64,000 nucleotides of DNA, taken from contig QPGO01000092.1 in the NCBI GenBank assembly GCA_008632985.1, positions 124,001-188,000 on the forward strand. Reading direction: 5' to 3'. Shown piece after piece: positions 1 through 51,479 of the stretch; position 1 is the stretch's first letter, and the number at the start of each line of letters is the position of its first letter. The notes beneath the pieces are model-generated. The model was not told where the DNA came from, ran no database searches, and saw nothing but the letters and a program-made list of their open reading frames with translations. Origin of the DNA: Psammoneis japonica (taxonomy: Eukaryota). Made by a program: the position numbers and the translations under genes.

Positions 1-517
1 CAACAGACAATGGCATTGTTGCCATGAAGCCCAAACTGATCCTGTGAGAACAACAACATCACCATGAAACTGCCACACAGTTTTTCACCATGCTGGCAGC
101 TCCCAAAAGTCTGCCCTTTTGAAATGCAGCTTCTGCACAATTTTTGCACTGGTGCATCTCATGAGCCATGGGCTTTTTTACATGATTTTGTGTGTGGAAT
201 TTGTGCAATGGAAATGACGCCAAACATCTCATGAGCCAGCAGCTTTTTTGGGATTTGTTGTGCACACAATGCACCAGATTCTTGCACGCAGATGTAAAGG
301 CAGAAGAGACAAACAAACATGCTGGGAGCTTCTGTGAGATTCTACGCAATTGGGCAGACTTTTGCAGTGAGCAGACTTTTGGGAGCTGCCAGCATGAGAT
401 CGCCTGCCCTTGTTTCCCGCAAAACTCATTGGTCAACAGCAATGCTGGTCATCAGAACGTTTGCGAACATGATTCAAATTTAACTTCATTTTGACAATGC
501 ATTGTGCTTGATGTTTG

Positions 518-1818
518 TCAATGAACACCACCTTGTTTGCTTTGCCACTTTGCAAAGCTCATCAATGAACACCACTTCACTTCTTTGCCGTTGGCCTTTC
601 TGCATTGTTGACGATGTGCTCTGCTCCCTTGCCAGATCAGTGTGGCATCTCGACTGTCCTTGCTTTCTTCTCCATCTTCTTTGTCATCATTCTGCCTTTC
701 CTTTTCCATGTTTTCTTCCTCACTGTCCTTGTCTTTGCCAGAAAGCTCTGTCATTGCTTGTGTTTGCATCTCCAACTCTGCTGGTTTTCTCTTTGTTTTT
801 GCTCCCTTGCCCTTTCCATCACTCAGCCTCTTTTTTCCTTTGCTGCACCATGTGTTGAACTGCTCACCTGGGTGACTTGCATGCCCTGTCTTCCTTCACC
901 TCTGCAAGCAGGTCATTGAATCTTTTGGTTCCTTCATCCTTCCAAGAGTCATGCTGTCATGCTGAGTCTGTGCATGGGGGCACCGGCTTCACATCCTTCT
1001 CCTCTTCTTCATTTCCTTCTTGAATGTTCCCATCCTTCATGGCCTTGTGCTCCCAAATCTTCCAGCAGTTTTCCATCTTCAACAGTCCCAGAGCCTTGTT
1101 GCTTGCCAAAGTCAGCTCTGAAGCCTTGGCGTTTCCTGACTCCACCATCTTTCTCCACACTGCAGTGCTCTGTGTGAACTTTAGAACCTTGTCACAGAAC
1201 CATGTGCATGCTTCCTTGTTCACCCGCTTTTCACTCACAATGGTCTCCACTGTCTCTTCTTCCCAAGTTGCCAGGAATGGTTCTTCAGTTAATGCAGCTT
1301 GCTTCTTGTTCTTCTTTTTGTTCTGGTGTTTTCTTGCAGCTTTCTTTTGTTGCTTGCAGATTCCCTTGGCTTCCTGTTCTGTCAATGCCGCTGCAGTGAA
1401 TGAGCATTTCGACAGCTGCGCTGCAGCCAACACCTCCTTTTCCATGATCCCCGCAGCACTCACCTCTTGTTGCACTCTTCGTCATTGTCCAGGTGACAGT
1501 GTTCCTCTTTGTGTTTGTTGCATTGAGGGTGCACTTTTTCACCCAGTCTTCCCACAATCCTGCACAGTCTCACTTGCTGAACCTGCTCTTGGCTGTGTTT
1601 TTCCATGTCAGCCATGACACCTTGCCTCCACTCACCAGGTCTGCCTTGACAAGGAATTTTGCCCTTGGGAACAGTTCTTTCCAAGCCACCTCCTCAACCT
1701 CTCTCTTCAGAGATTGGTGATCTCCAGCAGCTCCCACTCTCAACAATGCTGCTGCTGACCTTGGGCTGTTTGGCTGCTCTTCAGCAGCCCCCTCCTTCCT
1801 TTTCTTTTTCTTTGGCAT
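518..1818 (-). pseudogene. Decayed accessory ORF of the outer Plavaka-type element (homolog of 10251-11530)
   Basis: LFPRAKFL / RNTV / ACTWFCDKVL / ALGLLKMENCWKIW match LFPQVKFL / RNTV / ACKWFCDHIL / ALVPLAMENHWQVW of the inner copy. Putative 73-bp intron at 1391-1463 (GTGAGT...CAG). Several stop codons. Confidence 0.75.
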
Positions 1819-2339
1819 GACACAAATGTTGCAGACTGCAATCTGTTGTCAAAATGTGTGGCAGCAATCATGCACAGCTCATTCTGATGTGGATGATTGC
1901 CGTTGCAATGTGAGGAGATGCTCTTGCCAATGCTTGTGATCCTTCAACTGCTGCCACAAACAATGAAAACAACCAAAATTGGGGTTGTGCATGTTTTCCA
2001 ATTAATCTGTCATTGTTGGTGTCATTTGGTGTGTGCCCAGTGATCAAATTTCCTTTTCAAAAAATGTCAATTGCTGTTGTTTGATGTTTTTAAGTTGCAA
2101 ATTTGTCATTGAAACATGTGTCTGAAACACACCAAAGTGCATTTGTCAATGTTTGTGCCTGTGACAGTTCTTGAAATTGGAGTGAACTGACTTTTTTTTT
2201 TGCACCAATTTTGTGTCTTGTTTTCCAGCATTCACCCACTTTGCATGACCAAACCAAACCAGGTTGTGATTCTGCCTCAGCACCAACATGCAATGCAAAA
2301 CTTGCCCCAGCTGCAATGCAGACAATTTGCTGGGCAAGC

Positions 2340-4411
2340 AGGTTCTTGAGCAAGGGGCAGTTGCCTGGCCGTGTTGCAAATGATCCTTCATGTGCATGCT
2401 CAAACACTTTGACCACATTCCACAGTGCCGTTCCATCAGGCCCACTTGCAAATTGGCCAGCTCAATGCACAGAAAGAACACCACCCCACTTTTGCACCCC
2501 AGTGCTGTTGTGAAGGTTGTTGGTTGAAATTCTCTTTTGGGAATGTCCGCGCACCAGGCAGAGAATCAGAGGAGCAGCTGGATGTTTCTTGGTCATCCAA
2601 TGAATCATCTCCTCCCAGATTGAGGTGACCCCAATGTGGAGCATCTGTTGCCAATGTCTGACTGGGGCATGCTGCTGTTGAACAATGCTCTTTTGATGCA
2701 GTGTGGTCATCACCCTTCAACGACAACATTTCTCCACTTGTGCCATTGTGCGACAATGAGGAACACCGTTCCATGTCATTGGAGATGTGCAATGACATTG
2801 CTGGTTTCACAAAAAGACATCATAGAAGCACCTTCAAGCTTGGTGTGCAAATGCCTCATTGCAGTGAACCAACGGCCACTCTGTCTGAATCCTTTCCCGC
2901 TCCATTGTGCAAGATGATTCCTGTCAACCTTGAAAAACCGCAGAGCAGAGTGAGAAAATGGTGTCTGTCCCACTTGTTGGACACTTGCACTTGGGTGGAT
3001 CAAAGCAACCTTGTGGATCTTGCTGATCCTTTGAGAAAGCATGTGGCAAAGGGCAACAACAACAAATGTGTTTTGGCTGTCAAGTGGCACCAAAATGCAT
3101 GCCAGGCTGGAGTGACGGATCCTCAAAAACAGCTCCTGGGATGTTTGACAGTTTGCATGGACAAGACAGGCAAAACAGCTTCCATGGGATCTTCTTGCAG
3201 AGAGACAGTCACAGTCACCTTGGCACATGTCGCCTTCAAAGAATGGCACAACAAGGCACAGTGGCAAGTGCTTGGGCACATTCCCAACTTGGAGAAACTG
3301 CCCATGCAAGTCGGAGAAGGGCCAAAGCCTCCGTGACTGCCACAAGGTGTTGAAGACAATGCTTCAGTCGCTGATTGACATTGTGGACCATGGTGGATTC
3401 AGGTGTCATGTGAGAAGGGGCAACAAGATCCAAAGCCTTCATGTGATCCTCACCACAATCCTGGTCAATGGGGATGCAAAAAGCGGTGACTGCCTGGTTG
3501 GCCGCTGTGGAGCAAAGAATTGTTGCCAGCGGTGTTCTGGGTTTTGCACGGTGGGGCAAAATGACCCAGCAATCCTTGGAAGGATTGCAAGCTTGTCCAT
3601 GCTGGAGACCTGTTGCTCATTTGGGGCAAGGCCAATGACTGTGCTCTCAATGACAAAGAGAGGATCCACTGGGCAGGAACAACAACTGCGCTGCATGAAG
3701 CATCACAACGTTTCTGCCAACTGCTTGCTTCATGCTGACTTCAGAGAGCAACCGTTGGGGCAACCCTTTCCACTGCTGGCAACATGATGCACCTGTTTGA
3801 AAACAGAGCTCTAAAAAGAGAGATTGGTGTTTTTGTAGACAGCATGGCCAATTGTGTGAAAAGCAAGGTCAATCAAATTGTGGAAAAAATGTTCAGCAGC
3901 CACAGACCCACTTGCAAATCTGTGTTTTTGTGCACCAATTTCAAAGGAGGTGCAACCTCACTTGCCTTCCTCAACTCCCACCACTGAATGGGCATGGCCT
4001 TTGTCTTTCATCTGTTGCTTCTGACAAAGGAGGGTAAAAATGTCACCCCCTCAGATGCACTGTGCACCAGTGCACCAAGCTTCTCAAAGATTTGCTTGCG
4101 TTCCATGCATGGTGCAAATTGGGAAAACCACCAGGAGGCAGAAACAATCTAAACAAGATCAGCAAGAAGATTTGGTTGCTCACATCATGCATGGTCCATT
4201 TCTCCCCCCAGGCATGAAGGAGCTGGGTGAAAGGTGCAAAAGCTGCACAAACTGCTTCACCTGCCAACATTCCTGCATTTTTTCTGCCATGCCATGAACT
4301 TTGATGATGGGCTGGGGATTTTTTCAAACTCCCATCGGCAACAGCACAACAATGCAGCTTTTCAGTGTTTCTCAGCCAGGCTGCATCACACATGGAAGAC
4401 CAAATGACGGC
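2340..4411 (+). pseudogene. Outer Plavaka-type transposase, N-terminal part (frameshifted, interrupted by insertion)
   Basis: Motifs MDKTG, LGHIPNLEK, GDAKSGDCLVGRCG, MMHLFEN, TNFKGGATSLAFLNSHH, QKLHKLLHLP, AMNFD and HMEDQM are colinear with 6523-9798. Start is approximate. Confidence 0.85.
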
Positions 4412-4671
4412 GCATCAGAGTGAACGACATCGCAACGTCTGCACACATGACAAAAATGTGTTGCCACATTGTAAAACCCACTCATCTGCATATGATGGTT
4501 TTTGTCATTTAGCCGATTGTCAATCTCCTGCTGTTCTTCATGTTTGAACACAGGTGCTTTTTAATTTTTGTGCTCAGCCTTTTTCACAACTGCTGACAAT
4601 CTTTAACAACAAGCCAAACATTGCAATTGCATGCAATGAAATTTTCATCATGTAAAGTGTGCGCTGATCAT

Positions 4672-5259
4672 TCAATCAATGACTGTGCTCCAATTGGCCT
4701 GTTCGTCCGCATCATCCTCTTCATTCCATGTGTCTTGTCCGCTCTCTTGCAAGATTTCAAATGTGTGTGCCGCTGCCGCATTGGATGTTTCCTCGTCACC
4801 GTTCCAAAAAAGCCACACTGCATTTCTTGCATTTGGGTGAACATCATCGAGCGGAAGAGGTCCCTCGAAGTGCAGAATCGCATCGCTGCTCCCCTCTTGA
4901 TGTCGTGTCATCTGCTTCTTTTTCTCTTTCTTCATTTTTCCCGTCCCATTTTTCTCTTCCTTCTTTGTCTTGGCGCTGCCTGTTTTCACCGTCTCCGGCG
5001 TCTTTCCATCCAAATCCTTCTTTTTCATCGATCCCGTCACCGTCGCCTTCATGGTGTGTCACTTTGTTTTGGATCCATGTTTCTGACTTCTCTCTGTGCT
5101 GTCCCCATTTCCAAATGTTTCTTTGTGATTGTTTGCATGCGTCACTTGAAGGCACCCACGTGTTCTTCACGTGCCTTAACGCGCATGCAGCAATCCATGT
5201 TGTTTTCCAGCACATGCACCCTTTCTCCTGATGCTGTTCTGCACAACATTTTCTTCCAT
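4672..5259 (-). pseudogene. Inner element ORF1, Lys-rich, unknown function
   Basis: 126-aa open segment 4672-5052 (basic region then acidic tail, no Tyr). The upstream part is broken or spliced. Divergent from ORF2. Confidence 0.4.
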
Positions 5260-5313
5260 CAATTCTGCACTCCGCACTGCCCTTTCCCGGCACAATCTCA
5301 TGCAGGATTTCTC

Positions 5314-5394
5314 TGGGAGAAGTCACATGCGCGTCTGGCAGGTTTTTGTGTGTGAAACTCCAAATCCCACCAGGCGCGCATGTGACTTCTCCCA
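5314..5394. repeat. 25-bp inverted repeat with 31-bp spacer between divergent ORFs
   Basis: TGGGAGAAGTCACATGCGCGTCTGG (5314-5338) versus CCAGGCGCGCATGTGACTTCTCCCA (5370-5394): 24/25 reverse-complement match. Confidence 0.9.
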
Positions 5395-5510
5395 CGCACC
5401 ACTCTGGCATGTTTCCATGGAAACCAGAATTTTGTGACTGACGCACGACCAATCTGGTGAATGCAATGGCGGACCCACGACCACAACAATCAGAGCATTA
5501 GAAGAAAACC

Positions 5511-6500
5511 ATGTCAGATGAACTCCGTCCATCCGCTGCTGAGGATTTCCGTCGCCGGATGATGGAGACAGTTGATGGTTTTGTTCACGCTGACGCTGCT
5601 CGTTGTTCAGAGGAACAGAGAGCAAAGGATGCAAAGGCTGCTGTGTCAAGATCGGTGGAAGCAATGGCAGAAGCCCGTTGTGCCGTTGTGGCTGCAATGA
5701 CCGCACTTGACAGTGCTTTGTTAAATCCAGCAACAACCACTCGCGAATTTAAGCACATCTGTGCGCAGGTGATTAAGTCATCGATCGAGACACACTGTTC
5801 AGACAACAACTGTGTTGTTGCAGTGGAAAATTGCAGCAAAGTGGAAATGAGTTTCCAATGCTTTCTTCACGGTGACGCATTTGACGCAAACGAATTGGGG
5901 CTCCCAATCTCCGTTGCGGGACATCAAAAATCAGAATTGAGGCTGCACATGCTGCACAGCTGTGACTCGACGTTGCTTCTGAGAAGCCTCAGGGCAAATT
6001 CTGACACAGACGCCAACAGAGCAGTGGAGAGGGAGCAATCTGCGATCAACAGCATCAACAAATCCATCCACCGCCGTGCCGTGCCACTCCTTCGAAGGCG
6101 ACATCTAACACAGCCGCTGCACATCCTGAAGGCTGCAATCACGTTGCTCCACGGGGCCCTCGACGATTTGAGAAGGAAAGACGTTGCCTTGCAGCAACAG
6201 TGGCAAGCTTTGTGTGATCTGTGGCCAGGCACAGATCAAATGCGGGGAGGGACATGGACCGCGATCTGGGCCATGGACGAAGAAGCCGTGGCAAGAGAAA
6301 GGGTCCTGCAGCTGGCATTGCAAATCGAGGCACAACTGGTGGCTGTCAACCAGCCTGACCACAGCGCCAACTTTCAGCAGGCGATTGTGGCTGCCAGGGA
6401 ACATTTCATGGTGCAGGATGACCAAATGGACCGTGCAAGTGGACACTGCATAGAATCTGTGAGGAAGCAATTGCTCCAAAAATGCACACACTGTGAGTGA
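5511..6500 (+). CDS. Inner element ORF2, 329 aa, helical-looking, unknown function, hypermutated
   Basis: Uninterrupted ATG-started ORF with no Tyr in 329 aa. Converges on the transposase stop with a 22-bp gap. Confidence 0.6.
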   Translation: MSDELRPSAAEDFRRRMMETVDGFVHADAARCSEEQRAKDAKAAVSRSVEAMAEARCAVVAAMTALDSALLNPATTTREFKHICAQVIKSSIETHCSDNNCVVAVENCSKVEMSFQCFLHGDAFDANELGLPISVAGHQKSELRLHMLHSCDSTLLLRSLRANSDTDANRAVEREQSAINSINKSIHRRAVPLLRRRHLTQPLHILKAAITLLHGALDDLRRKDVALQQQWQALCDLWPGTDQMRGGTWTAIWAMDEEAVARERVLQLALQIEAQLVAVNQPDHSANFQQAIVAAREHFMVQDDQMDRASGHCIESVRKQLLQKCTHCE

Positions 6501-6522
6501 ATGACAGATTGATGCGCACATC

Positions 6523-9500
6523 CTATTTTAGAAACAAATCTGACCAACACTTCCTTCTGTCCTGTGCAGCCCAAACAAATGGGGCCTTTTCTTGCGCTTC
6601 TGCCACTCCTGGACATTCTTCATGAACCAAAACATTGTCCCCAATTGCTTCGACAGGGACAACACGTAACTCAGGTGAGCACTGAGTCTTCTCAGGCGTT
6701 GAAAGCCAGTTGTTTTGTTTGTGATCAAGCTGCCAGCGACCAACCAAGTCTGTGTGCTGATGCCGTTGCCTCACAGTTCTCTGGTCAGCTTGACAAGCAG
6801 TTGGATGGACAACTGCAAAAATCGATCCTGTGCACTCCTGTTCAAAGAAACACAGCAAACGGGAGGGAAACTGTTGATCGCCCTTTCGTGTGCCAAAGGT
6901 CACACAGGCAAAGTCATGCCATGGTCCTTCGCTTTTGAAATCGGGGTGCGCACGGCACGTGTCCCTCCTGCTTGCATTGCAAAACTCTGTCTTGCAAGTC
7001 AGGTGTGCATTTTCACTGTCTTCACCAACACAATCCTCCCACTTTTCCAACATGAAGTTTGGCAACACAGGACGAACTTGGCAATGAGCATGCTTGCTGT
7101 TCCACTCAAACGTCACAGCGCCAATCCCTCGGTTGTAGGTGAGAGTGAATGTGCTTCCTCCCAGCGTGTGATTGTCCGTCCTGACTCTTGATGATTCCTT
7201 TTTCCCAGTTGGCAAAATCCAACTGTCAGCTGAAATTGCGGCGTTGAGCCTCATTTGGTCCTCCATGCGCGACACGACCTGCTTCAGAAAACTGTCGAGG
7301 TTGCGTTGTTGTGCGGCAGATGACGGCAGCTTGAAAAAGTCTTTCAAGAGACATTCCCCCAAGCCTGCGTCAAAGTTCATCGCATGTCGGCAACAACAAA
7401 GAAACACTGGGAGATGGAGTGTTTCATGAAGCTTTTGAAGCTTCCACCCACATCCTTCTGTTCACGGGATGAATTGCACCATCCGGTCTATGAGGAGACG
7501 GATTTTCTCGTTTATTTTCTGAACAGATGAGCCGGGAGTTGCACTTGTGATGGGTGGATTGCCCAGCCTGCACCATGCGTGGAAGACAAGAAGGTCCTCA
7601 AGCAATTGAGTGAATTGCCGGACGCTGCAGTTGAGTCTTTTTCCCTTGTGTTTTTTCTTTTTTTGGTTGTCGTCACCATCCTCAGCCTCACTCTCCTCTT
7701 TCTCATCCTCATTTTCGTCCCAGTCACCCTCTTTGGACTCCTTCGACCTTTCATCGTCAGAGTCATCCAAGTGCTCACTGGGTTGGCAGCAACTCTCAAA
7801 GTTTGCTTTGGGCATCTTGCGATTCTCTGGAACAATGGGTTCGTCTGCGTCCTCATCAAGGAAGCATGACTCACATGCGTTTCGTCCCTCGCTGGTCAAC
7901 AGGAGAAGGTAGAAAACAAAAGCCATTCCAGCCCAGTGGTGAGAGTTGAGGAAGGCAAGTGACGTTGCTCCTCCTTTGAAGTTTGTTCGCAAAAAGGATG
8001 CTTTGCAAGTTGACCGGTGATTGCTGAAAATCCTTTCCACCATGCTGTCCACCTCACTTGCGACCACAGGTGTCATGCTGTCTACAAATGAATTGATTGC
8101 CCTTTTCAAGGTGCCATTTTCAAAGAGATGCATCATGTCACTTGCTGTCGCAAGGGCAACACCGCATGGTTGTGCACCAAAGTCTGCCTCAAAAAGACAG
8201 TTGGCAGGTGCGTTGTGTTGCTTGAGGCAATGCAAGATGCCCAACCAGTGCTTCCTTTCTTGGTCTGATCTGTTGTCGTCGTTGGCCTCAGTTTGCACTT
8301 GGTGGAGATCCAGTCCTTGGACAAACTCGCATTCAATCCATGGGTCGTCCAGTTTGTTGAAGCCAGTTGGGCAAAAACGACAGCAACGTTGACGACAGTT
8401 GTGACCTCCGCATCGTCCGACGAGACAGTCGCCGCTTTTTGCATCTCCTGTGATGAGAACGATCAGTGGGATTGCGTGGAGGTGTCGCATCTCATCCCCT
8501 CGTCGCACGCATGTTTTCATGCCTCCTTTTCTCATGACTTCCAAAAGTGGCTCCAAAATGACACGCAAGCACGTGTGGCAGTCTCTTGACGAGCGTCCCT
8601 TCTCCGCCTTGCGATTGTTTGAGAGATTCTTTGCTGCAGATGACGACATCTTTTCCAAATCCGGGAGACAACCAAGAGGTTTCCAGACACTCTTGTCCGA
8701 CCATTTGTTGAAGGCAACATGCGCAGAGGTCATGATCACTGGTTCTCCGCAATGTGATCCCATCCCTTGTGTCCTGCCAGTCTTGTCGAGGTGAATGACA
8801 TTGCACTCAAGAAATTGTTTCTCTGGGTCAGTTGTCCATTCTTCGTAACTGCGCCTGCACCACTCACCCACCAAAAGGCACTTGTCATCTGGTCCCTTCG
8901 CTTTGCACTTCCCAAAAGGATTGTCTGGATCGGCCACATTCTCTCTGCTGCACCACAGGTGAGGATCGAGTGAAAACTGTTCCCAAACCTTTGTGAAATC
9001 CCATCTTGGCACTGACACTCGTTTTGGCAAACCGGTTTTGAAATTTTTGGTTTCTAGAGTGACAGGAATAGACTCGCTGGGTGGAAGAGGGAAATGCTTG
9101 GTTAAGGTGTGCATCAACTCTTTTCTCCTTGGCAGAACTGTGCCAAGCTCAATGTTGCTGTTGCCAGTGTGCCTCTCAATGAAATCAACAATGCAGTCGC
9201 ACAATTCCAGGGGAGCACCACGTGTGTCCATGAGCTTCTTGCACAACTCTGCGCAAGCTCCGTCAAGATTTGTCAAAGAGGGAGTAGAAGCCAAGGCCTC
9301 TTCTGCAGGAGCGTCACACCTGCTCCCCAAACGTTGATCCTCATCGTCAATGTCCTCTTCCTCCTCCATTGTCACGTCCAACACTGCAGCAAAGGATTGA
9401 CCACCGCCAACATCCAAATCGTTCATTGCCAAAAGCTCAACTCCTTGCATGCTGTGGTTTGATGAAATGGAGGACATGTCGTCCATTCTGTGCGGCGCGT

Positions 9501-9798
9501 CATCCGGGGAGGGGAGCAAGGGGCTGCTGCTCGGATCACTCGTTGAAGATCTTGGGAATCTGCCACGAGTTGATCGCCTGGGACAGGATTCATCATCATC
9601 AGAGGACAAAAAGGAAGAACCGCCGCTTTCTTCAGGTGGCCCCTCTGTTGTGGCAGGAATGTCACTTTGATCTGGGATCAGATCTTGGGTTTGCAACTCT
9701 TGGGCAACTGAGCAACACGTCGGTGAGCATCTCCAATGGCAGGCTGTTCGCAAAAAACTTTGGCCACAACCGGGACAGAGAAGAGGGTTTCCGTCCAT
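6523..9798 (-). pseudogene. Plavaka-type transposase, about 1090 codons, one in-frame TGA at 7462-7464
   Basis: ORFs 7462-9798 and 6523-7407 are in one frame (FIP*TEGCGWKLQKLHETLHLP; TGA probably from CGA). N-terminal CxxC...H...C finger, HLDKTG, GEPVIMT, GDAKSGD, CRFC, DMMHLFENG, NFDAG.GE, RAHPDF...PWHD. Family recognised from motifs only, no search run. Confidence 0.8.
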
Positions 9799-10250
9799 TG
9801 TAAATCAGACAACATTGACAGGGCCTTCATCAAGACTCATGCTCGTCGTCCTTGTCTTGTGGATGAGAAGGGAAAAAAAGAACAACACGCAAAAAATGGC
9901 AGGAAATTGGCAAACATTACATTGTCTTCCAGATTGGGATGATTCTTGTGGGCATGACGCATCTGCATTTTGATTTTTTATCTGGCATCCACAGTGAACA
10001 TTGCACTTTTTATTTGCCATCAAAATGCAGGATGTTGTCTCCATTGAAACGCAATGACAGCCAAGTCAAAAAGCAAGTTGGGCCATTCGTTGTTGCACAC
10101 AAATGTGTTTTCAAATTTCAGTGTTGCTGACAACAATTCGTGCAATGTCACAGAGAAAAATGGAGTGCCTGGCTGTCTCAACACGACCCAAACGACGGTT
10201 GCACTGTCAAACAGTGCCACTCCTCTCATTGTTGCCGTGAAAAGATCAAG

Positions 10251-11530
10251 ATGTCGTCTCCAGCACAACCGGCAAAGAAGCGAAAGAAAAATGAGACTGC
10301 CAAGCCAATGAGCCCGAGACTTCAGGCAGTGTTGAAGAGAACAGGTGTGCAGGCAGCACATGGTGCATTGAAATCAGAAGCAGAGAAGGTGGCTAGAAAT
10401 GATCTCTTTCCACAGGTGAAGTTTCTGAGTCCATCTGAATTGGCAAGCAATGGGAGCGTCTCAATGTTTGTCAAGAAACAGATTGCTGGTGGCAACATGG
10501 ACACTTCAAATTGGTCAGGAGCTTGGGAGAAATGGGCAAAAAAGGCGGCAAAAAGGCAAATTGACAATTGCAGAAATACGGTGTGTTTGGCTGTTGGGGC
10601 GGAGGCAATGGCACGCAAGTCAAGTGACCAATGTGTGTGATTCGAGAGTTGCGCGCATCTCACAAGAAGATGATGGCGATGCTTTGTCCACATGGGCATT
10701 GTCACTGAGGAAGAGGGAAAGGAAAAAGAAAAGAAACTCAAGGCATCAGACAGGAGGAAAAAGAGGAAAAAGTCAAGCCGTGACAAGAATGAAGAGAATG
10801 ACATCCCGTTTGTGCCGACATGGGATCCGTTCAGCCTGGGCACTGTCACCGGCGGCAAACGAAGGAACAAGCAGGCATGCAAGTGGTTCTGTGATCACAT
10901 CCTGCCTCAAACCAAGCAAAAGCAGGCATGGAGTGGTGCCATCAAAACTGGGAATGCACAGGTCTCACAGTTGCCCACGGTCGGTGATGAAGCTTTGGTG
11001 CCATTGGCCATGGAGAATCATTGGCAGGTGTGGGCATGCAGGAACAAGGAGGAGGCGGTGGAAGAATTGGGTGAGGAAATGGAGCCCAAAGAAACAAGGC
11101 CTGCCCCTCGGCACACGAAGCCAAAGAAACAATGAGTGTCTTGGGGAGACAACGGAATCAATTGGTTCAACGATTTGTGCAAAGAGGTGATGAAAGACAG
11201 AGACTCCAAGGAGGGCAAGGAGTTTGAAAAGTGACATGCAGAGATCAAGAAAAGCGAGTGCGAGAAGTCCGGAGAAGCAAAAAAGAAGAAAAAGAAAGCA
11301 CCGGCTGGTGACACGGACAAGGTGAAGGCAATGAACAGCCTGATGGTGGAGAGCAGCAGGGACGACAACAGTGACAACGATGAGCAGGAGGAAGGCGCAA
11401 AAGGAAAAACGGACGACGGAGGAGACAAGTCCGATGGAGACGAGTCTGATGATGATCGTTGGCTTGGTTTGAGAGAGTTGCAGCAAGAAAATGTGCGCAC
11501 AGTTTGCACAGCACTCGGTCATTGCACTGC
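10251..11530 (+). pseudogene. Inner element ORF4 (accessory), with an inferred destroyed intron at 10615-10695
   Basis: MSSPAQPAKKRKK...LFPQVKFL...EALVPLAMENHW...WGDNGINWFNDLCKEV, with internal TGA stops. Homologous to 518-1818 and divergent from the transposase in both elements. End is approximate. Confidence 0.75.
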
Positions 11531-11847
11531 AGACGCAACAAGGGATTGACTTGACCGATGAAATGCTTTTCTCGTTTAAAATGATGTTTGCGAAAATCAA
11601 CAAACCAAGGATTGTGTGGAAAAGCAATCATGCATTGGCATGTGGCAACAAGGTGGAGGCAGACACAGCGATGTGGACACAGTGAAAAACAGCACACACA
11701 ATTCTTAACAAGTTGTTGCAATGTTGGCACAGCAAACTTGCAACCAGAGGTTGGCCTTTCATTGCATGACAACAATGTTTTGCAACATTTTGATGAATTG
11801 TCATCATGCAAATCTACACATTTTTAACATTTCATGCACTCTGATGC

Positions 11848-12587
11848 GCGCCAAGAGCCATCTTGGCTGACCCACAGACTTTATCTAAGTTGGAAAAAAG
11901 AGACATTCCACGTGAGATGGCACAACACAGACTTGGCAGGAGCACTTTTACATTTCAGTGCAGTGATGCAAACAAGGCAGTTTCCTTCCTTTGGCCAGGG
12001 AAGCAAAAACATTGTCAGGTTCACCCTGTCTTGTTGAAATTTGCAGGGAAAAAACGGAGGGACCATGTTGGCAACACAGAGACTTTCTCCAACACACTTC
12101 TGTGCAAAACTGAGTGTTGCAACAAAAACGGAGTTGACACTTGCAGAGCATGTCCTGACTGCAACAGCAAAGGCCGATGCGCGACTGGGCAAATGTCAAC
12201 TTCGGGACTCACCACGGCAATTTGTTCTTCTCATTGTGGCTGCATTGTTTTTTTTTAAAACAAAAGTGATGGTGAGTTGTTTGCAATTGTCCACCCTTGC
12301 ATGCACCAGATGGACAAGCGTTTGATTGTGGAACACATGCAACACACCAACCTTCTTGTCAGTTGGTGGCAACTGGACCAAGTGAAAAACCATGATTTGT
12401 CCACGGGGCTGAGAAAGCCATGTGCTCTCCCAAAATGTTCTTGGTGCCCATCAACACCATTGGAGACAAGCTGCTGGCATGTGAAGAGCAGCTGGGAATT
12501 GTGGAGTCACACAAAGAAATGAAGCATGTGTGGGCAGTTCAAGACCAGAGAAAGACATGGGCAGACAAGTTTCACAACAGCGCATGA
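11848..12587 (+). pseudogene. Outer Plavaka-type transposase, C-terminal part
   Basis: HRLGRSTFTF, KHCQVHPVL, CKTECCN, DTCRACPD and VWAVQDQRKTWADKF match HTLGGSTFTL, AHCQVRPVL, CKTEFCN, DTCRAHPD and VWAAQDRRKCWSDLF of the inner copy. Confidence 0.85.
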
Positions 12588-13916
12588 ATGGAAATTTTGT
12601 TCATCTGTGATTGGAAACTGGAATGGCACTCAAAATGTCAGCGAAGGGGAAAGCAAGGCTGTTGCATTGAGACATGCTTCAGATTGTGTCACTCACCTGG
12701 TTTGATGAGTGGGATCTGCACACTGTGTTGACACTGTCTGCTGTTTCATCAAAAAATGGGACAGCTGTTTGCACACCTCCCAACCTGGTGTTCTTCTCTC
12801 AAAGGACAAGAATTTCATTGGCTTTGTTGGATCAATCAGTGGCAACTCCTTGACAAAAGTCAGGACTGCACTCCTGTCTGTCTTGGGACAAAATTCCCAG
12901 ATTTCTTGTTCTGTCACTCTCAAGCAATGCTCTTCCTGATTGGATGGTTTTCCAAGCCATTCTCCCCTCACCTGCTCTCCGATTTCATGGGAGGCCTGGC
13001 AAATTGCAGCTTCTGCAGTCGCCATTGCCTTGTTCACACCCAGGCAGGGCATGGGCAAAACTTTTGATGCAATCCAAGTTTTGGACCACTTGTGTCAGGG
13101 ACCACAGGTTGCAGGGGACAATGATGCAGCATCTCTGAAACTGTCGATGCAGCAGAGAAAACATCATCCCTTGCAGATTCTCATGGAAAAAGCATTCACC
13201 AAACATTGCACATTGCCACTCCCCTTTCTGCACCCAGCAATGATCCATGCCAATTTGAGTGAAGCCACTCAACACATTTTGTGAAATCCTTTGCAGAGAC
13301 GCTGCAATTCAAGTGGCGTGTTTTGCTGCCATCCGGCAAAGAAACTGCCCATGCCCCCCAACCAATGCACTGGAGAAGAGGTCCTTCACCACTGTGCTCC
13401 TGGCCTCATCTCTTTGCTGCTGAATGGAAACCACTGACTTGACACCACAGTCCAAACAAAGCTTGTCCAAAGAAAGCTCTCCTGCATTGAAAGGTCTTGT
13501 CATGCCAAGCCAAAGTGCATTCACACCACCATCCTCACCAGGGAAATTACAGCACGGGGGAGAAAACTCTGTGATCAGACAGCTCCATTTGTGCAATGTG
13601 AGCCTCATTTGAAATTTGAAGTGAGCAACCAAAACTTGCAAGAAAGTTGCACCCACAAAGTTGTAGTGTCAAAGTCATCCAGGCTTGAAAGAACTGGTGG
13701 CTCAACAACACTGTCAAGAGACGCGTTCCCCTCTTCATCATCAACAATTGACGATGCTTCAGACGGATCTAATTCTGACCTGATTTGGCTGTGACTGTGG
13801 CTTTGCCCTTGTCTGCTTTCTCCATGTTGACTGTCTCTTGCTCTTCATTTTCTACCATCAAGGGACAGTGGGCAGAGAAGTCAGAGGCAGAACATGCCAA
13901 CTTGGACACAGTGCTG

Positions 13917-14128
13917 TCTTCATCACTGGCAGACTCCTCCAACAATGAGTGCAATTTGTTGCCAGCTTCAAATCTGGCGGGAACGGAGGCAGATGTGTCA
14001 AAGGTGAAACACTGCTCTTTCTCAACCAACTCTGAAATGCACTCATCTTCATCACTGGCAGATTCCTCCAACAATGAGTGCAATTCGTTGTCAGCTGCAA
14101 GTCCGGCAGGAATGGAGGCAGACATGTC
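13917..14128. repeat. 83-bp direct repeat, two copies 129 bp apart
   Basis: TCTTCATCACTGGCAGA(C/T)TCCTCCAACAATGAGTGCAATT... at 13917-13999 and 14046-14128. Encodes N(E/K)LHSLLEESASDED twice on the minus strand. Confidence 0.9.
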
Positions 14129-15160
14129 CGAGTTGTGACCTTGCCCTTTCTCTGTGGCATCTGCAGTTGTGCACTCCTTGTGCAGGGTGAGATCAGAGTC
14201 AACACACTCCAACATTTGATGCTCATTGGTGCCATGGCCCTTGCAAAGATGCAACCAGACAGAGAGAAAGTGAAAAGGTCTTGACCAGAAAATGGACCGT
14301 GGAACATGTGATTGAACATGCCAGTGCAACGATTGCACTCAGATTCACACAGCTGGCGCTCCATTCCATTGCCACCAAGATCTCCAGTCCTGGTCTCTGA
14401 TGTCATGCAATCATGCATGAGAGGCCATTCTTCCAGCTTTGCATGCTTCAGTTGTTGCTCAGCTCTGGAATTGAAAACTGGACACACCATGTTGTTGAGA
14501 CAAGGATGGTCCTTCACTGCAATGCCAGCAAGTGCCAGACATTGCAACACTGACATGAGACAAATTTCATTAAAATCAGCACCCCGTTTGGCCCAAACAT
14601 GGCAAGCATCCTTGCACCATTGCTCCACAAGATTTGCACAGAACTCATCTTTGTCCACATTGTTGTTCATCCAAAGCAGCATTGCATGAATTTTGTCCAC
14701 CACATTGCATCTGCCAGGTCATTGGCTTTTTTGATGCAGTTGGGGTCCATGAAGACCTCAGAGAACTTGCTGTGCATCAAGTTGGCAGGGCTGATCTGCC
14801 CAACCTGTGGGTTGCCAAACAACACACCAAACTCATCCATCATGAATTGATGGAAGAGAACAAATGGATCTTTGCCTGCACAGCAAAGGTTGGGCAAGTG
14901 CTTGTCCCCGACATGGCAGAATTGGTGGCAGCAAGTGGGACAACCCACCAGAGTTGCAAGACAAATGACCCATTTTGGGTCAGGCCCAGATCTGCAAATG
15001 ACATTCTTGAACTGGCAAAGCATGGTGGCTGGAGCTGACAAGTGAAAGTCTCCAAGAGGGAAGGAAGGGAATTTCAAATGGTCCATGTGCACGTTGGGAA
15101 GTCCAGTGTCACCACCTCCGCCTGTCACAACATCATCCCACAGCCTGCTGTCATCATCCA

Positions 15161-15180
15161 GAGAGAGAGAGAGAGAGAGA
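15161..15180. repeat. (GA)10 microsatellite
   Basis: Directly visible in the sequence. Confidence 0.95.
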
Positions 15181-18100
15181 TGCTTGAACATCTTTGCAGA
15201 CAGTGCAAAGTCAGGATGGGAGTGATCATCATGCTGCAGGTCAAAGTCTTGAAGTGGCTGGGAAGTCTGGCACAGCTCAATTGCGGTGCATCTGAGTCAG
15301 CATTGGCTTCATGCTGCACTTGTCATCACAGCAGTGACCAATGGCAGTTCTGCTGTTGCTGACTGCCTTGAATGACCAAATGTCACTGAGTGCATCCATG
15401 ATGAAGAAACAACTGGCAGCAGTCTTCCTGTGGCTGTTGACACCAGGTGCAGCTGTTGCTGTCATGATGTCCCTCACAAAATTGACCGGGAGAGATGCAC
15501 AGTCCCTGCATTGTGACATCCTTGCATTGGAAGCAGAGGCAACCAACTCTTCACCCAAGACTTTCAAACACTCCTTGTGCTGAAGGGACCAGTTGGAGGG
15601 TGGGGGGACTCAGTTTTCTGAGCTCCACCTCATTTTTGCAAAGCTGAATTGAGTTGAGAACATCCGCAACCCCATGGCCTTCATCTTGGCAGAAACATGT
15701 TTGTTGAAGTTGTCATTGGGCTCAAATGCATCAAGACTGTGTGTGGCAATGGGCTCAGCTGACTTGACAGATCCAGGCTCCCTCAGATGACACTTCCGTC
15801 CAGCACAGCCAAACTTGATCCTTCTTCAGTGTCCAGCAAACTCAACAGCAACAGATCCATCATGCTTGAGATTGGACTTGCCCTTCAACAAAATGAAAAG
15901 CAAAAGGGTGGGGATGCAGACACAAAGACCACCAAAGTGAGCTTGGTGCAATGCACTGGCTTGTCTGGCAACCAACACTTCCTCAGAGCAGCAACCCAGC
16001 TGAGGTGGGCAATCAACGCAGACCCTGGAGCCTGCGGTGGGATTGCTCAAGGAGCTTTTGTTGGAAAACTTGTGCCAGTTTTGTCTGAAGTTGTCTGTGA
16101 GGTAAAAGTCAGTGGCGGAGTGGTGCAGCACACACTCAATGTTGGTTGCATTGTCAATGATGTGCAGGTGTGAGACATGGGCAAACACTTCCTCTGTGGC
16201 AACAGCACGACACTTGGACGGGTCAAAGCATTGATGCATTGTTGACTTGTCCAGCCATGACATGTCATCGAGGTCTGTTGGAGGAGAGGCAAGATCAAGC
16301 CATTTGCAGAAACATCAGCATGGGTCATGCATCCTTTTGAGGGAGACCCTGGGGAGGGAGAAGAGGGTTTGGCCAGAGCCGTGGTTTCCAACAAGGTGGG
16401 GATGTTGGCGGCAAGGGTGCGGTGCACCCCCCTGGATGACGACACATTCCCGGATGCCAAAGGAGCTGCTGGGTGGGAGCAAGAAACAGTCGTGACCTTC
16501 TTTCGACGGACAGTCAAAGAAGGCTCTTGTGGAGAAAATAAAGTCAACAAGGAAAAAGACACATGAGACAACGATGACACATGACAGCAGTGCAGGTGCA
16601 GGGATGTGCTCACTGGCATCATGCAAGCAGGTCCCATCTTTGCGTGTCCTTCTTCTAATTTTACGTCCAGTTTTAGATTTGTTTTCTTGCTTGTGATCAT
16701 CTTCCAAGCAGCTGGCCCTCTGACCACGCATTCTGCAACAAAGCATTGTGAGCTGCTTGGAGCACCAGGGTCATGTGCTGGGTTGCTCTTCAGGACAGTG
16801 CTTCCTGAATTCACATTGCAACATGGCATCAATTTTGGCTTTGCAAGCCCATTGATGGGCAGCAGCATCACCTTCCACAATTGCCAAGTCCTCAATGTCA
16901 CAAAGATTGTTTCCAAGAAACCCCTTGACTTTGTCCTCCTCAGAACCTGCTGCACTCGACTTGCATGTGACAAGAAATCTGTTGGCAAATGTGCGCCACT
17001 CTTTTTGAGTGTTGACCTGACAAAAGATCTGCATGAACCAACAGCTGGTGTCCTTGGGCTTGTGCTGGACACAGTGCATGACCATTTTGGTGACAAAGCA
17101 TGCACCATGAAGGTCATGTGCTTGGTCATCAATCAATTCTTGGAGACTTTTGCACTTAAAAAAAATGGAAACAAGGCTCGCCAGTGACAGGATCATTGAG
17201 GTCATCGCTGGCAATGACATGGTGCACAAACTTGACCATTGCCTTTGTGTTGTGGCAAAGGTCACAATGTTGCTCCTCTTCTTTTTTGTCTCTCCAGGCA
17301 ATGTGGAGAAAAAGAGAGCATCCTCCAAATTTTGATGTCAAAGAATGCAGCTGCCTTTTTTCTTTCGGGGGATTTCTTTGTCAACCAACCACGAGTCATG
17401 ACATGGGACCAGATGCCAGGATGTCTGAGAGATTGCCTCACAATGTTGTTGGCGCAGATGAAATGATCTGTGTCATCAAAATCAACATCATCAGGAAATT
17501 GGAATGAGGGATTGGGGTTGACCTTGTCTGCGGATGGGGCAAAGTCATTGGAACGGCACACGCACAGGTCAATTTGATTTCGAGGAGAGGGTGTGCTGTT
17601 GTGAAATGTGCAGAAAATTGCGCATGTGGAAAAAATGCTAAAAACACAGCAGGCAACCATGCACAGAAATTCTGAAAGAGGTCAGAAAAAATGGGGGAAG
17701 TGCGTGATGACTTGGGCATGGATGACATGCCAGCAAGTGCAGTGATGCACACAGTGGGTGGAGAAAATAAAAACCACGTTCAAATGCAAAGCATGAAAAG
17801 AAAAGAGATTTCATTGTCACAAGTCATGGGGAACTTTGCAAAGGCAATTGATTGAGTGTCAAACTCATTTGATGAAAACAACGTCAATTGAATTCTCTGA
17901 CAATGCTCCTCACGAAACTTGCACTTCAAATGCGCTGTGAAAAATTCTTTCACATGTGATGTTTGAGTTGAAAAGAACAACAAAAATGCTGTTCAATGTC
18001 ACAAATGTTGACAATGAAAGCAAAAACTGCAATGTTGCAGCCTCTGATGTGGCTTGCAGGGAGATCCATGTTGCGTTTGTTGACCCAGCAGGTTGTGGCC

Positions 18101-21100
18101 TTGTGCTGCACTGCATTTTTCTGTGTTGTGAGCCCATTTTGACTTGCCTGGCTTTTGTGATCTGACAGAGCCTGTGCCAAGTTTCCACTCCTGCAAGGAT
18201 CATTTTCACAAAACCATGACATTTTTTGGCTGCAGGACATTGCTGGCAGCCTTCCTTGAGCTGTGGGAACAACTTTCTGGGCACCTTCACAGTGGTGACT
18301 TGCAAGGGAGGAAAGAGTGCCATTGGTGCAATCATCAAGATCCAAGCTGTGCTTTTCAGGCACACCCTCATCTGCCAGCAGAGAGGCCACAAAGTGTGCC
18401 TGAGCGGCATTTGCAGCACCTCAACTTCTCTTGTCTGGACCCATCTTTTGACAATGAATCAGCCCAAGGATTGTGCTCCTGAGCTGTCATTGCAGAGGTG
18501 CTGTGTTCTCCAAAACCTCCCCTTCTCACCAGAAATGAGAGACCCACAATGTCCCATCTGTTTTGTGTCACTTTACAAAAAGTTCCCAACTCCAAGGGTG
18601 GAGCAACAACTCTGCTTCTTGTCTGCCATGACAGCCAGATGCTCTGAGCCACAAGGATCAACTTGCTCCCAAGGCTTCTTGTCAGCAAGAAACAACCACT
18701 GTGCTGTTTGATGCAGTGTGCAGCATGTGCTTCAACCACCCTCTTGGCATGCAACACAGCTGTGCAGATCCACTTTTCTGTCAAAGCACACATCTCCTCA
18801 CCTCCAGCAGCTCTGCCTGCCATTGTGGCTTGGCTGGCTGTTGTCACAAATCTTGTTGATGCCCTGAAACACAACTCTGCAGCATCGAAGTTGCCCCCAA
18901 CACCTCTGTGACTCTTCAACCACTGAGACACCATCAGCATCCCCAACATCCAAGAAGTGTCTGCTCAACCCACATGCACTGCTCTCCATCCACAAATGTT
19001 TTGATCACAAGGTTGTGGGCAAAGCAACAATTTTTCTGAGTTTGTCTGCTCTGTTTGATGCCAGCAACATCATTGCTTGGATGGGACAGTTCACACCACA
19101 TGCTCAACTTGCCAGTGGATCTCTTTTTGCAACAAATCCAGCCCCAACACACTGGACCACCCCATCTGCAAAATGCACACTGTGCTCCTTCTGCTCCTCT
19201 GTTCTTGTGGTCTCTTTGATGCCTCATTTGCTGTCCCTCATGCTTCTGCCCAGGCTCTTTAACTGCTTGCTTGGTTTGAAAGCTTTGTGCTCCACAAACC
19301 AAGCTCATGTCATCATTGTTCACCACGCGGCACTTGCCAGTTGTTAGCCTCAACTTCCAGCAGCATGCCATGGTGGCAGATGGGATTTGCTGTTGGCGGC
19401 AACAACCCTTGAGATGATCTGGCAGCTTGCAGCAATTTGGGCAAAATTGAGCAAAAATTCAAAAATGATGTTTGTCAAAATGTCAATTCACCTGCACAAA
19501 TGTCAACTGGATGTCTGCAGAGAGACACCACAGTTTGCGTTTGTTGGCACACAGCCTCTGATGACAACAGCAATGGAGATGTGCTTTTGTCCCAGGTGAG
19601 AAATGCACGCATGGAGAGGCCGGGCATTGTGCCCACTTTTCTTTTCTTTCATCATTGTGCATTTTGTGTGAACAAATCTGATGGATTTCCTCCAATTTTC
19701 TTGTGTGGCTGCTTTCTCCAGATCTGGCTGCTTTGAAGTATCAGCCATTGCTCTCTTTGCCTGGAGGGCATGGACAACAAACGGAAAGTTTTCATTTGGG
19801 GGCAACCGCCCCATTTTGGCTGGCACAAGAAAATGGCGGGAAGAAGCTGCACACAATGGCTGCTTTTGCTGCAGCTTTGAGCCTGTTTTTCTCTTTCTTC
19901 CATTGCGCACCTGAAAGTTTTCACAACCAATGCCCACCATGCCAAAAAAAGCAGTGCTCTGGCCAGCTCCATTGTTTTCATGAGAGAAAAGCTGGGGGGT
20001 CTGACTTTGCATGTGTGCTTTTTTGCAAAGTCTTGGCCATCTCAAAGACCAAAGATCAGCAAATTTGCAAACCTGTGTGGGAGCCTCTGCTGAAGCCACA
20101 ACATCAACAAAGTTTGGCAGCTGTGGAGCAATCAAGTGATTTGAAAGGCAGGGGCAGAGGCAACAGCAAAACAAACTGTTGACAAAATTTTGGCTCTGGA
20201 GTGACAACAAGTTGTGACTTGGAACAAAAGAGGCAGAACAAAGCATCTCTGTGTGGCACTTGGATGTTGCTGTCATCATCACCCTGCTTTGTTGTGGTGT
20301 TGAGCACACTGTTGTTTTTGCACCCAGGCTTCTCTCAGCTGCCATTGTGTGCCCTCAAATCTGGGCAGCACCGCTCTTTTGTCCGTGCCAAAATCTCCAG
20401 TGTGTGTGTGTGCTTGTGAGACCTGCCATCAAATCAAAGGTGCTGTCCACAGCAACTTAAGGTGCAGACATGACAGAGTGCAAAGAACATGCCAGTGTGT
20501 CCAAAAACACATGTTGTCATTTCCATCTTGCAAAACAAGAGTTGACTGTCATGCAGCTGGAGAAACAGAAACAGCAGCAGCGCAGCACCATTTTTTCCAT
20601 GTGCACAGCTTGTGGCTCAAGAGAAACCTTGCAACTTGTCCAAAAGGGGTGAAAGCACATCTTCTGGAGACAGCAAGGAGCCCCCTCAGCTCAAAAAGTT
20701 TTGCACAAAAACCACATGGCTTGGCAGCCATGGAAAGTCTGGAGAGAGCAGCTGCCACTTTTGAAGATGGCACACTCTGCCATGTCACAACCCTGGATGT
20801 CATGGCAAAAGAATGGCAAAGCCAGAGAGGTCACCAAAATGACAGAAATGACAAAAAAGCTGGCATGTGTTGCTTCGAGCTGTGCTTTGTTGCTGGGCAC
20901 AAGCAAGCACACCTCATTTTGATATGAAAAAGTTTCTCTCAGAGCAGCATCGTCAAATGGGCCATGTCGCTGGATTGTTCTTCTCACATTGTGCCACAGT
21001 GAGTTGCTGTGAAATTGCTCTCCAAATGCACCTCCACAAACCTCTGACAAATGGCCGTCTGCACTTGCTTTGCAAGGCTGAAGTTGAGCCCTTCGATCCA

Positions 21101-21798
21101 GCCGCGCTGTCGGCTCTGCCTGTGTGTTTTGTCATCAACAGCATGCCAAGAAGATGAGCCTGTTCTTGTCAACATGTGCAGCCTTTGAACACAACACCAG
21201 ATCCAGTCAGGAGCAAATGTGGCTTTCCCTCATGCTTTCAATGTGGGCTCAATTTTGTGACACGAATGCAACCCAGCCCTCACTGGCACGTGCGTGCGCG
21301 GCATTGGTGTGGTGGCTTTTCGAAATTTCATCATCTGCAGCTGGCGGATTTCTCCTGTGTCCGTTGGATCGTCGACAGGTAGGCGGCGCGGGTGAAGCTG
21401 ACGCACTCTCACATTATTGGTTTCCCTAAGTAATTTCATGTGTTTGATGTCCAACAGCTGGCAGTTTGTTATCCTCAGTATTCGTTACTGTTTGTTGTCA
21501 TGAAACCAATGTTTAGAATTCCCAAAACGGGGTGTGAATTCTCAACGGCAGATGGACAACGCAAAAATTCTGCGATTGGCGAATTCGGAGTATGCTGATC
21601 AAAATCGTGTAGAATTGTACGCAGTTATCATACGGAGGTTTCGTGTGTCATCAGATTGACTCACCGAACAAATCCACTTCTGGAAGTATTTTTTCGATGA
21701 TCCAATCTGCATTCATTCATTCATCGCGTTGTTGTGCGACCAACATTAGTTGGCCATTCTTCGTTGAAAGTGATATATGAAGGAAGAAGCATAAGGCC

Positions 21799-23266: not shown

Positions 23267-23503
23267 GATGATAGGTAGCTGTGTGTTTTGCCGTTGTTAA
23301 ATCAAGAGACCTCGGATGATTTAAGGACGAAGCACTTGTGTCTTACTTGAGTACAATTCGCACTTGTATAAGCGTACTACGCGTATTCTCCTCTTTCTCT
23401 TTGTGCTTATGGATGTCACTGTGCTCCCTCAAGCCACGCAACTACCTAAACGCAGAACTGAGGGCGAACAGTACAGCCAACACAGATAGAGACGGACAGC
23501 AAC

Positions 23504-24048
23504 NNNNNNNNNNNNNNNNNNNNNNNNNNNNNNNNNNNNNNNNNNNNNNNNNNNNNNNNNNNNNNNNNNNNNNNNNNNNNNNNNNNNNNNNNNNNNNNNN
23601 NNNNNNNNNNNNNNNNNNNNNNNNNNNNNNNNNNNNNNNNNNNNNNNNNNNNNNNNNNNNNNNNNNNNNNNNNNNNNNNNNNNNNNNNNNNNNNNNNNNN
23701 NNNNNNNNNNNNNNNNNNNNNNNNNNNNNNNNNNNNNNNNNNNNNNNNNNNNNNNNNNNNNNNNNNNNNNNNNNNNNNNNNNNNNNNNNNNNNNNNNNNN
23801 NNNNNNNNNNNNNNNNNNNNNNNNNNNNNNNNNNNNNNNNNNNNNNNNNNNNNNNNNNNNNNNNNNNNNNNNNNNNNNNNNNNNNNNNNNNNNNNNNNNN
23901 NNNNNNNNNNNNNNNNNNNNNNNNNNNNNNNNNNNNNNNNNNNNNNNNNNNNNNNNNNNNNNNNNNNNNNNNNNNNNNNNNNNNNNNNNNNNNNNNNNNN
24001 NNNNNNNNNNNNNNNNNNNNNNNNNNNNNNNNNNNNNNNNNNNNNNNN
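23504..24048. other. Assembly gap (545 N)
   Basis: Run of N. Confidence 1.
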
Positions 24049-46913: not shown

Positions 46914-47079
46914 TGAGTAATGTGGCTTGTTGTGCGCTGGTGCTTACAAGCAGTGTGAATTATACCTTTTTCTGTCGGGGGTGGTGTCTAGTGTTATACG
47001 GTAGAGTCTGTTTTGTTCGCTTGTTTCCAACTGCCTAGCTACTTACATAGGACTTTATTGTCGAACTGTTCCTGCTTAA

Positions 47080-51260: not shown

Positions 51261-51479
51261 AGGTTGGCGACGCTGTTGTGGCTCTTGCTGCTGCTAGTAG
51301 TAGCTAGTGTCGGGGTCGCGTCGCCAGTGAGGTTGAAGGTGACAAGGGGCCTTCGCGATCTTATGTGAATTGAAATTGTGAGACGAAGATTCCAAGATGA
51401 TGGTGTCAAAAGAGGCGCGCAGACCCACACGTAGGAATCATTTAGAACAACATCGAAAAGGCCAAAAAAGGAAATTCCG

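Follow-up and report, generated by a model that had tools for sequence, protein, structure and literature searches.

Probable remnant of a spliceosomal intron, altered at both ends by TpA-directed transitions, in a TA-depleted transposon of the diatom Psammoneis japonica

The window analysed here is the whole stretch of 64,000 nucleotides taken from contig QPGO01000092.1 of Psammoneis japonica (positions 124,001 to 188,000, forward strand), and it combines host genes with transposon DNA. On the host side, the SF3B3 ORF at 38985–42020 has diatoms as all seven of its seven named relatives (63–68% identity; best unnamed match 80%), and on this ground an origin of the DNA from Bigelowiella natans was rejected. 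The host genes, spread over 24100–46900, are diatom-like. The SF3B3 intron (42018–42121) reads GTGAGT...CTAAC...TACAG with homology on both sides, and to judge from this gene the host splices canonical introns. A plausible further host intron (44872–44761) was proposed by a noisy ORF-bridging script, which missed the verified SF3B3 intron and was used for no other host intron. An assembly gap of 545 N (23503–24047) separates the host genes from a large transposon island.

The transposon DNA is distinguished by its lack of the dinucleotide TA. TA-poor blocks lie at 1–21.3 kb, 47–50 kb and 51.5–54.5 kb, where the observed/expected ratio (o/e) of TA is 0.0–0.2 and that of CA and TG is 1.3–2.0; the host DNA of the window has a TA o/e of 0.3–0.9 and a CG o/e of about 1. 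Between positions 1 and 21,379 only 72 TA are left, versus about 1,450 expected from base composition, and two of them are in the inner accessory gene (10251–11135). The blocks are sharp-edged and confined to transposon DNA, and the TA loss does not spread into neighbouring host DNA. The large island consists of nested elements, with the following main features:

1–21300, no strand: transposon island stripped of TA (TA o/e 0.0–0.2; CA and TG o/e 1.3–2.0)
4410–11849, no strand: inner transposon copy of about 7.44 kb, bounded by its termini, a break in homology and a step of CG o/e to 0.5–0.8
6523–9798, minus strand: inner Plavaka-like transposase gene, 1,093 codons, interrupted by a single premature TGA at 7464–7462
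2785–4409, plus strand: 5′ part of the outer transposase, with several frame changes (tblastn)
11850–12572, plus strand: 3′ part of the outer transposase, in which 11920–12572 is matched by P0006 (355–569) and P0002 (944–1151)

Homology to the outer transposase breaks off at 4421 and restarts at 11920, and the inner element is delimited by inverted termini of 21 nt (4410–4430 and 11829–11849). The inner element is thus inserted, in opposite orientation, into the transposase gene of an older and distantly related element. Each element consists of a transposase gene plus a divergently oriented accessory gene. Between the outer and inner copies, the accessory proteins are 30–37% and the transposases 37–50% identical, and the DNA can be aligned in the transposase core only (70%). 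The 780-codon ORF 9804–7465 on the minus strand matches the Plavaka profile (PF18759) with 21.1 bits (E 2e-4), below the curated cut-off of 26.3 bits. A full HMMER search of a protein library returned 909 relatives at E ≤ 1e-3 (best 1e-129, 40% identity); when 12 relatives were compared with the Plavaka profile, 6 passed the cut-off, 3 fell below it and 3 gave no match. The relative P0006 (571 aa) is 62% identical to the inner transposase over 566 residues. Since its alignment crosses the stop at 7464–7462 (X opposite Arg) and reaches the shared C-terminus at 6526, the inner transposase gene extends from 9798 to 6523 and carries a premature TGA. By protein similarity, the inner transposase is clearly related to members of the Plavaka family.

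The related transposase, the two divergent genes and the short inverted-repeat termini are all reminiscent of Plavaka and CACTA-like (EnSpm-type) elements. Unlike these, the window copy has a Pfam score under the cut-off, an accessory protein outside any family and termini that read GCGCATCAGAGTG... and not CACTA, although these ends may have been changed by the loss of TA. Even at E 10, no Pfam family matches the accessory protein, which also has no look-alike in the Atlas and gave an AlphaFold model with a mean pLDDT of 48.9. Word-index protein searches returned nothing for the inner exon-2 ORF and the inner transposase. As for DNA of relatives, an exact 27-base pattern found nothing in metagenome contigs, and neither did a search with P0006 in metagenome contigs or genome contigs. 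We identified no target duplication for the inner element, and a search for its terminal repeat in other places, meant to delimit the outer element, gave matches no better than chance. Past the end of its transposase gene, at 5314–5394, the inner element carries an 81-nt near-perfect hairpin with GC-rich arms of 25 nt. The subterminal parts of this element keep more TA than its genes, with 6 in about 230 nt on the left (4430–4660) and 4 near the right end (11577–11825); either these parts are hit less often, or their TA were kept by selection during the activity of the lineage.

The accessory genes of the two elements can be compared codon by codon, and their features are the following:

957–1818, minus strand: outer accessory gene, with an in-frame TGA at 1572–1570
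1391–1463, minus strand: intron of the outer accessory gene, GTGAGT...CAG, 73 nt, phase 1
10251–10614, plus strand: exon 1 of the inner accessory gene, from the ATG at 10251, 121 codons plus one base, open
10615–10695, plus strand: probable remnant of a phase-1 intron, 81 nt, matching the outer intron in codon and phase
10615–10620, plus strand: donor hexamer GCAAGT, probably derived from GTAAGT through T>C at 10616
10638–10640, plus strand: first in-frame TGA if the segment is unspliced (ORF 10131–10640; product of 129 codons)
10689–10695, plus strand: CACATGG where the acceptor is expected, its TGG (10693–10695) probably derived from TAG
10696–11135, plus strand: exon 2 of the inner accessory gene, open up to its TGA stop

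In the outer gene, the donor GTGAGT occupies 1463–1458 of the minus strand and the intron ends with ...CTGCAG at 1391. Outer and inner copies share the same layout, in which ten complete codons lie between the motif RNTV and the split codon, so that the phase is 1 in both. The split codon is g|cg (A), followed by A-L-T-E, in the outer copy and c|gc (R), followed by I-V-T-E, in the inner one. The initial annotation had described the two segments in this way, with GTGAGT...CAG in one and GCAAGT...CATGG at the same codon position in the other, and our reading of the sequence agrees with it in every detail. The alignment is free of gaps on both sides: 82 residues separate the LK motif from the donor in both exon-1 translations (counted by hand), and the exon-2 translations, beginning with the residue next to the acceptor, run ungapped over 140 columns, with 33% identity and 47 invariant columns. 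That the two proteins share only about 30–37% identity counts against the comparison. The outer 73-nt segment shifts the reading frame, whereas the inner 81-nt segment keeps it; the latter contains two in-frame TGA (10638–10640 and 10671–10673), and cutting out 10615–10695 restores a continuous, homologous frame. As a splice pair, the inner copy reads GC...GG, i.e., a GCAAGT donor is present and GG stands at the acceptor, so that neither GT nor GC is paired with AG, while the outer homologue reads GT...AG. The sole in-frame AG beyond the second TGA is at 10712–10713 (read by hand); we rejected it as a cryptic acceptor, its use removing the conserved IVTEE.

Further copies of the inner family were found in the DNA run X1, which derives from the same organism and contains 0.66 of the sampled words. 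Alignment of its contigs to 10250–11135 at ≥80% likeness gave 624 short matching contigs, whereas the runs X2 and X3 gave none. Their summed depth is 1,756–37,392 per bin and exceeds 10,000 in 26 of the 30 bins, compared with 30–50 for single long records, which implies hundreds of copy-equivalents of the family. Both sites of the segment could be followed in these copies. At position 10616, seven contigs have T (GTAAGT), accounting for 3,144 of a depth of 15,281 (about 21%), and the remaining 79% or so is C (GCAAGT); the variants listed for 10617 in the X1 contigs include no G. At least two contigs have a CAG acceptor whose last letter is 10695; the loose ends of both read ...GTCTGTGCA, also quoted as ...GGTGATGCTTTGTCTGTGCA, before G10695. 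Because the X1 variant table skips about 31 letters at contig ends, the missing rows for 10689–10694 carry no weight, and the count of CAG acceptors is a minimum based on the two loose-end contigs and not a share of the family. The CACATG of the window and the TGTGCA of the X1 contigs are six consecutive transitions apart, and CACATGG and TGTGCAG would fit alternative TA>CA and TA>TG resolutions of an ancestral TATATAG. At 10674 and 10677 the window departs from nearly every other copy, which makes the window copy a minority type in this neighbourhood. Among the 624 matching contigs, none fuses 10614 directly to 10696. Some X1 copies have lost 73, 110 or 115 nt from the accessory gene (10295–10369 and 10744–10865); the losses of 110 and 115 nt sit in its Lys/Glu-rich low-complexity part, and no deletion matches the intron.

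The direction of the TA loss can be read from the proteins. Tyrosine makes up 0.3%, 0%, 0% and 0% of the residues in four sets of transposon ORFs, versus 2.0% in 3,988 host residues, and histidine and cysteine are raised in the transposases. Opposite the 18 tyrosines of P0006 the window has Cys 10 times, His 3 times, Tyr twice and another residue 3 times. When eight relatives are pooled, Cys (57), His (23), Phe (21) and Tyr (12) stand opposite their tyrosines, with the rest scattered, and at 32 positions with Tyr in the relatives the window has Cys (13), His (5), Phe (4), Tyr (3) or another residue (7). Most of the best-conserved tyrosines are changed in the window transposase. As Tyr to Cys or His corresponds to TAY>TGY or TAY>CAY, TA is the ancestral state, and this confirms, apart from the splice sites, that the direction is A:T>G:C at TpA. 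TAA and TAG are nearly gone as well, leaving TGA as the only common stop in the transposon DNA. Owing to the scarcity of TAA and TAG, 62 stop-to-stop ORFs of at least 120 aa are found on both strands of positions 1–22000; most of them must be spurious and constitute a trap for gene callers.

The few surviving TA also suggest in which context the changes occur. With host counts standing in, roughly, for the ancestral composition of the transposons, the transposon/host ratio of surviving TA is 0.49 for TTAA and 0.21 for CTAA/TTAG, and lowest for ATAT (0.024), ATAC/GTAT (0.011) and GTAC (0.00; 0 of 224 host-scale counts). The target A thus appears to be struck most before C or T and least before A. 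On the bottom strand GTAAGT presents TAC, so that this bias predicts GCAAGT rather than GTGAGT as its product; in agreement with the prediction, the hexamer counts in transposon DNA are 47 for GCAAGT, 13 for GTGAGT and 1 for GTAAGT. A point against GTAAGT as the ancestral donor is its scarcity even in host DNA (4 versus 18 GTGAGT; 64 kb, both strands). Likewise, the bias would make Tyr>Cys commoner than Tyr>His, as observed. For the acceptor, the favoured product of ATAG would be ACAG, a working acceptor, which makes the TGG of the window the less favoured outcome.

Taken together, we infer from the states of the two sites in this and other copies, from the positional homology and from the direction of change that the segment was formerly spliced. 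With a probability of about 0.7, 10615–10695 represents what is left of a genuine phase-1 spliceosomal intron, both ends of which were changed by the process acting at TpA. According to this reading, a TpA-targeted A:T>G:C hypermutation, turning TA into TG or CA depending on the strand, would have taken about 95% of the TA from all transposon DNA of the window, with CpG decay as an additional and slower process; the mutator would be an enzyme, with a DNA-directed adenine deaminase as the likeliest candidate. It would have converted an ancestral GTAAGT donor to GCAAGT and an ancestral TAG acceptor, within TATATAG, to TGG. The donor change would be the outcome favoured by the context, common to most copies of the family, and a GC-type donor may still work; the acceptor change would abolish the AG, and an unspliced transcript would terminate at the TGA at 10638–10640.

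How far the two sites are lost is a separate matter. The initial annotation held that both had apparently been destroyed, and this can be maintained for the acceptor, where AG is replaced by TGG. The donor is probably weakened and not clearly destroyed, so that the acceptor alone appears clearly dead in this copy. Indeed, GCAAGT is the classic hexamer of GC donors and also the state of the family majority, which together argue that the donor may still function. At about 79% of the depth, moreover, the donor change is not private to the window copy, and the family still reached high copy number. The proposed ancestry of the sites, GTAAGT and TAG changed by TA>CA and TA>TG, is largely borne out by the T at 10616, the CAG copies and the replacement of Tyr by Cys or His. 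On the other hand, to reason from the need for an AG at the acceptor is to presuppose that the intron is real. Finally, the loss of splicing as a way to inactivate the element agrees with the dead acceptor but would not be the sole defect, the transposase having a premature TGA and lost conserved tyrosines.

The foremost alternative, possible although clearly less probable than the reading above, is that the working intron of the family is of the GC–AG type (GCAAGT...CAG), with an inherited and functional GC donor, and that the one splice lesion of this copy is the change of TAG or CAG to TGG. C at 10616 prevails over hundreds of copy-equivalents, no G appears in the variant list for 10617, the hexamer is the usual one for such donors, and contigs with a CAG acceptor exist; the GCAAGT donor also stands at a position conserved with a GT–AG intron. 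In the human, about 1% of introns have GC donors (PMC3167603). However, the exon ends with ...CAC and not AG before the GC, which makes for a weak GC donor, and the context bias of the mutator can by itself explain the dominance of GCAAGT, with neither selection nor shared descent. In addition, the donor and acceptor states of the other copies were read one site at a time; unlike known GC–AG introns, the inner copy has no AG at its acceptor and is known here from DNA alone.

CpG decay deserves separate consideration, as CG>CA/TG yields the same alternative pairs as TA>CA/TG and several of the variant places in X1 are CG versus TG or CA. The CG o/e is 0.04–0.3 in the outer, older DNA (1–4409 and 11850–21300) and 0.5–0.8 in the nested inner element (4410–11849), so that CpG is depleted in the latter and strongly so in the former. 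TA is equally low in both elements while CG is higher in the younger one, which indicates that TA loss is completed faster than CpG decay; the two are separate processes, which run at different rates in the same DNA. Could CpG decay have made both splice sites, through GCGAGT>GCAAGT and CGG>TGG, with no TA-specific change? This is very unlikely, because the variant at 10616 is T and not G, GCGAGT and CGG are no splice signals, and the inner element has a TA o/e below 0.1 yet retains at least roughly half of its expected CpG. Given that CA and TG can arise from CpG too, the TA ancestry of the acceptor block rests on the requirement for AG together with the T at 10616.

It is more improbable still that the inner family never had an intron and that its 81 nt represent degraded coding sequence or spacer, resembling splice signals by chance. 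The length is divisible by three, as coding sequence would be; however, the segment contains the two in-frame TGA, plus a third in most copies (those where 10677 is T), and matches a canonical intron of the outer element exactly in position and phase. In the TA-poor transposon DNA of the window, G[CT][AG]AGT is found at 66 of 54,605 strand positions (0.0012 each) and [CT][AG]G at 2,843 (0.052), so that the probability of meeting donor-like and acceptor-like strings by chance at the two exactly homologous places is about 6e-5; other copies, moreover, carry GTAAGT and CAG. Least probable of all is the reverse direction, with CA and TG ancestral and the T at 10616 produced by C>T as in fungal RIP: variant counts among copies give no direction alone, but transposon ORFs nearly devoid of Tyr, with Cys and His opposite the tyrosines of intact relatives, the near absence of TAA and TAG beside the common TGA, and a depletion of the TA that RIP enriches all speak against it.

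Fungal RIP is nevertheless an instructive comparison. RIP changes C to T at CpA, and so creates TpA, AT-rich DNA and many TAA and TAG stops. The similarity lies in transition hypermutation confined to repeats and transposons, in the dinucleotide context and in transposon genes riddled with defects. Chemistry and outcome are the opposite: A>G changes at TpA eliminate TA along with the TAA and TAG stops, so that both strands keep long open frames; in the window TA is lost, not gained, and the GC content stays at about 0.47–0.51. Regarding the enzyme, TadA/ADAT2-3 and ADAR normally act on RNA, and the target context of TadA is U33-A34-C35 of the anticodon loop. In both groups T or U precedes the target A, and the T-A-C/T preference seen here resembles the TadA context, whereas here DNA is affected and the enzyme is hypothetical. 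An enzyme akin to the tRNA adenosine deaminases, redirected to DNA, would therefore be a candidate.

The closest parallel is found in the chlorarachniophyte Bigelowiella natans, where hypermutation of A:T>G:C exclusively at TpA, affecting integrated viral and other foreign DNA, was measured in mutation-accumulation lines (Mettrop et al., 10.64898/2026.01.13.699255). That preprint reports that 231 of 302 new nuclear mutations fell in two viral inserts, describes 124 TpA-poor clusters genome-wide and proposes an ADAT2-like deaminase (10.64898/2026.01.13.699255). As far as that account goes, the signatures agree: changes are restricted to TpA>TpG and TpA>CpA, TA falls as CA and TG rise, and the clusters are limited to foreign or repeat DNA. 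The loss of TA with gain of CA and TG, the confinement to repeats and the A:T>G:C direction are likewise all found in the window. The TpA-poor genes of B. natans are reported to be enriched in transposase and reverse-transcriptase domains, and the targets here are transposons too. There are also differences. The present host is a diatom, i.e., a stramenopile; its targets are DNA transposons near saturation (TA o/e 0.0–0.1), as against 0.45 given for the giant-virus insert of B. natans; CpG depletion accompanies the TA loss here, while the main text of the preprint mentions neither CpG nor introns; and the process was measured there in living lines and is read here from sequence patterns alone. 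Among the literature that we found, TpA-specific hypermutation is in print only for B. natans (the 2026 preprint), and no paper dealt with TpA hypermutation in diatoms or with its effect on splice sites. This suggests that what is new here is a TpA-loss signature in a diatom, outside the sole published lineage.

We raise only tentatively, as a doubtful generalization, that diatoms possess a TpA-targeted A-to-G DNA hypermutation which marks transposons as it does the viral inserts of Bigelowiella, so that at least two SAR lineages would share it. All TA-bearing signals would then be built-in targets, namely GTAAGT donors, TAG acceptors, CTAAC branch points and TAA and TAG stops. The bias toward the usable GCAAGT could let high-copy families persist as GC–AG, TGA-only, tyrosine-free elements. 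If the reading preferred above holds, the process would be no curiosity of one chlorarachniophyte but would act in a major and partly transformable group of algae, where the enzyme and its targeting would become testable. Splice signals would report both the direction and the consequence of the changes independently of protein homology: GTAAGT to GCAAGT would be tolerable and to GTGAGT harmless, whereas TAG to CAG would be harmless and to TGG lethal for the site. The loss of TAA, TAG and all Tyr codons would give long false ORFs on both strands that mislead gene callers, and the nested pair would show TA loss finishing before CpG decay.

Some minor observations concern the rest of the window. 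A Pfam search of 63 further ORFs from the TA-poor blocks gave only one host dehydrogenase and one weak GRAM match. Two of the TA-stripped blocks flank a short-chain dehydrogenase gene (50349–51293, minus strand) whose TA and CG contents are normal. The TA-poor block at 47–50 kb is bracketed by direct repeats (46981–47147 and 49769–49929), 2.8 kb apart and 73% alike, which resemble terminal repeats of another element; at its left end (47116–47624) a 268-nt unit is duplicated in tandem, with 93–94% likeness. Finally, a direct duplication of 0.8 kb (57124–57887 and 62113–62893), whose copies are 5 kb apart and 71% alike, has normal TA, and not every repeated sequence in the window is TA-depleted.
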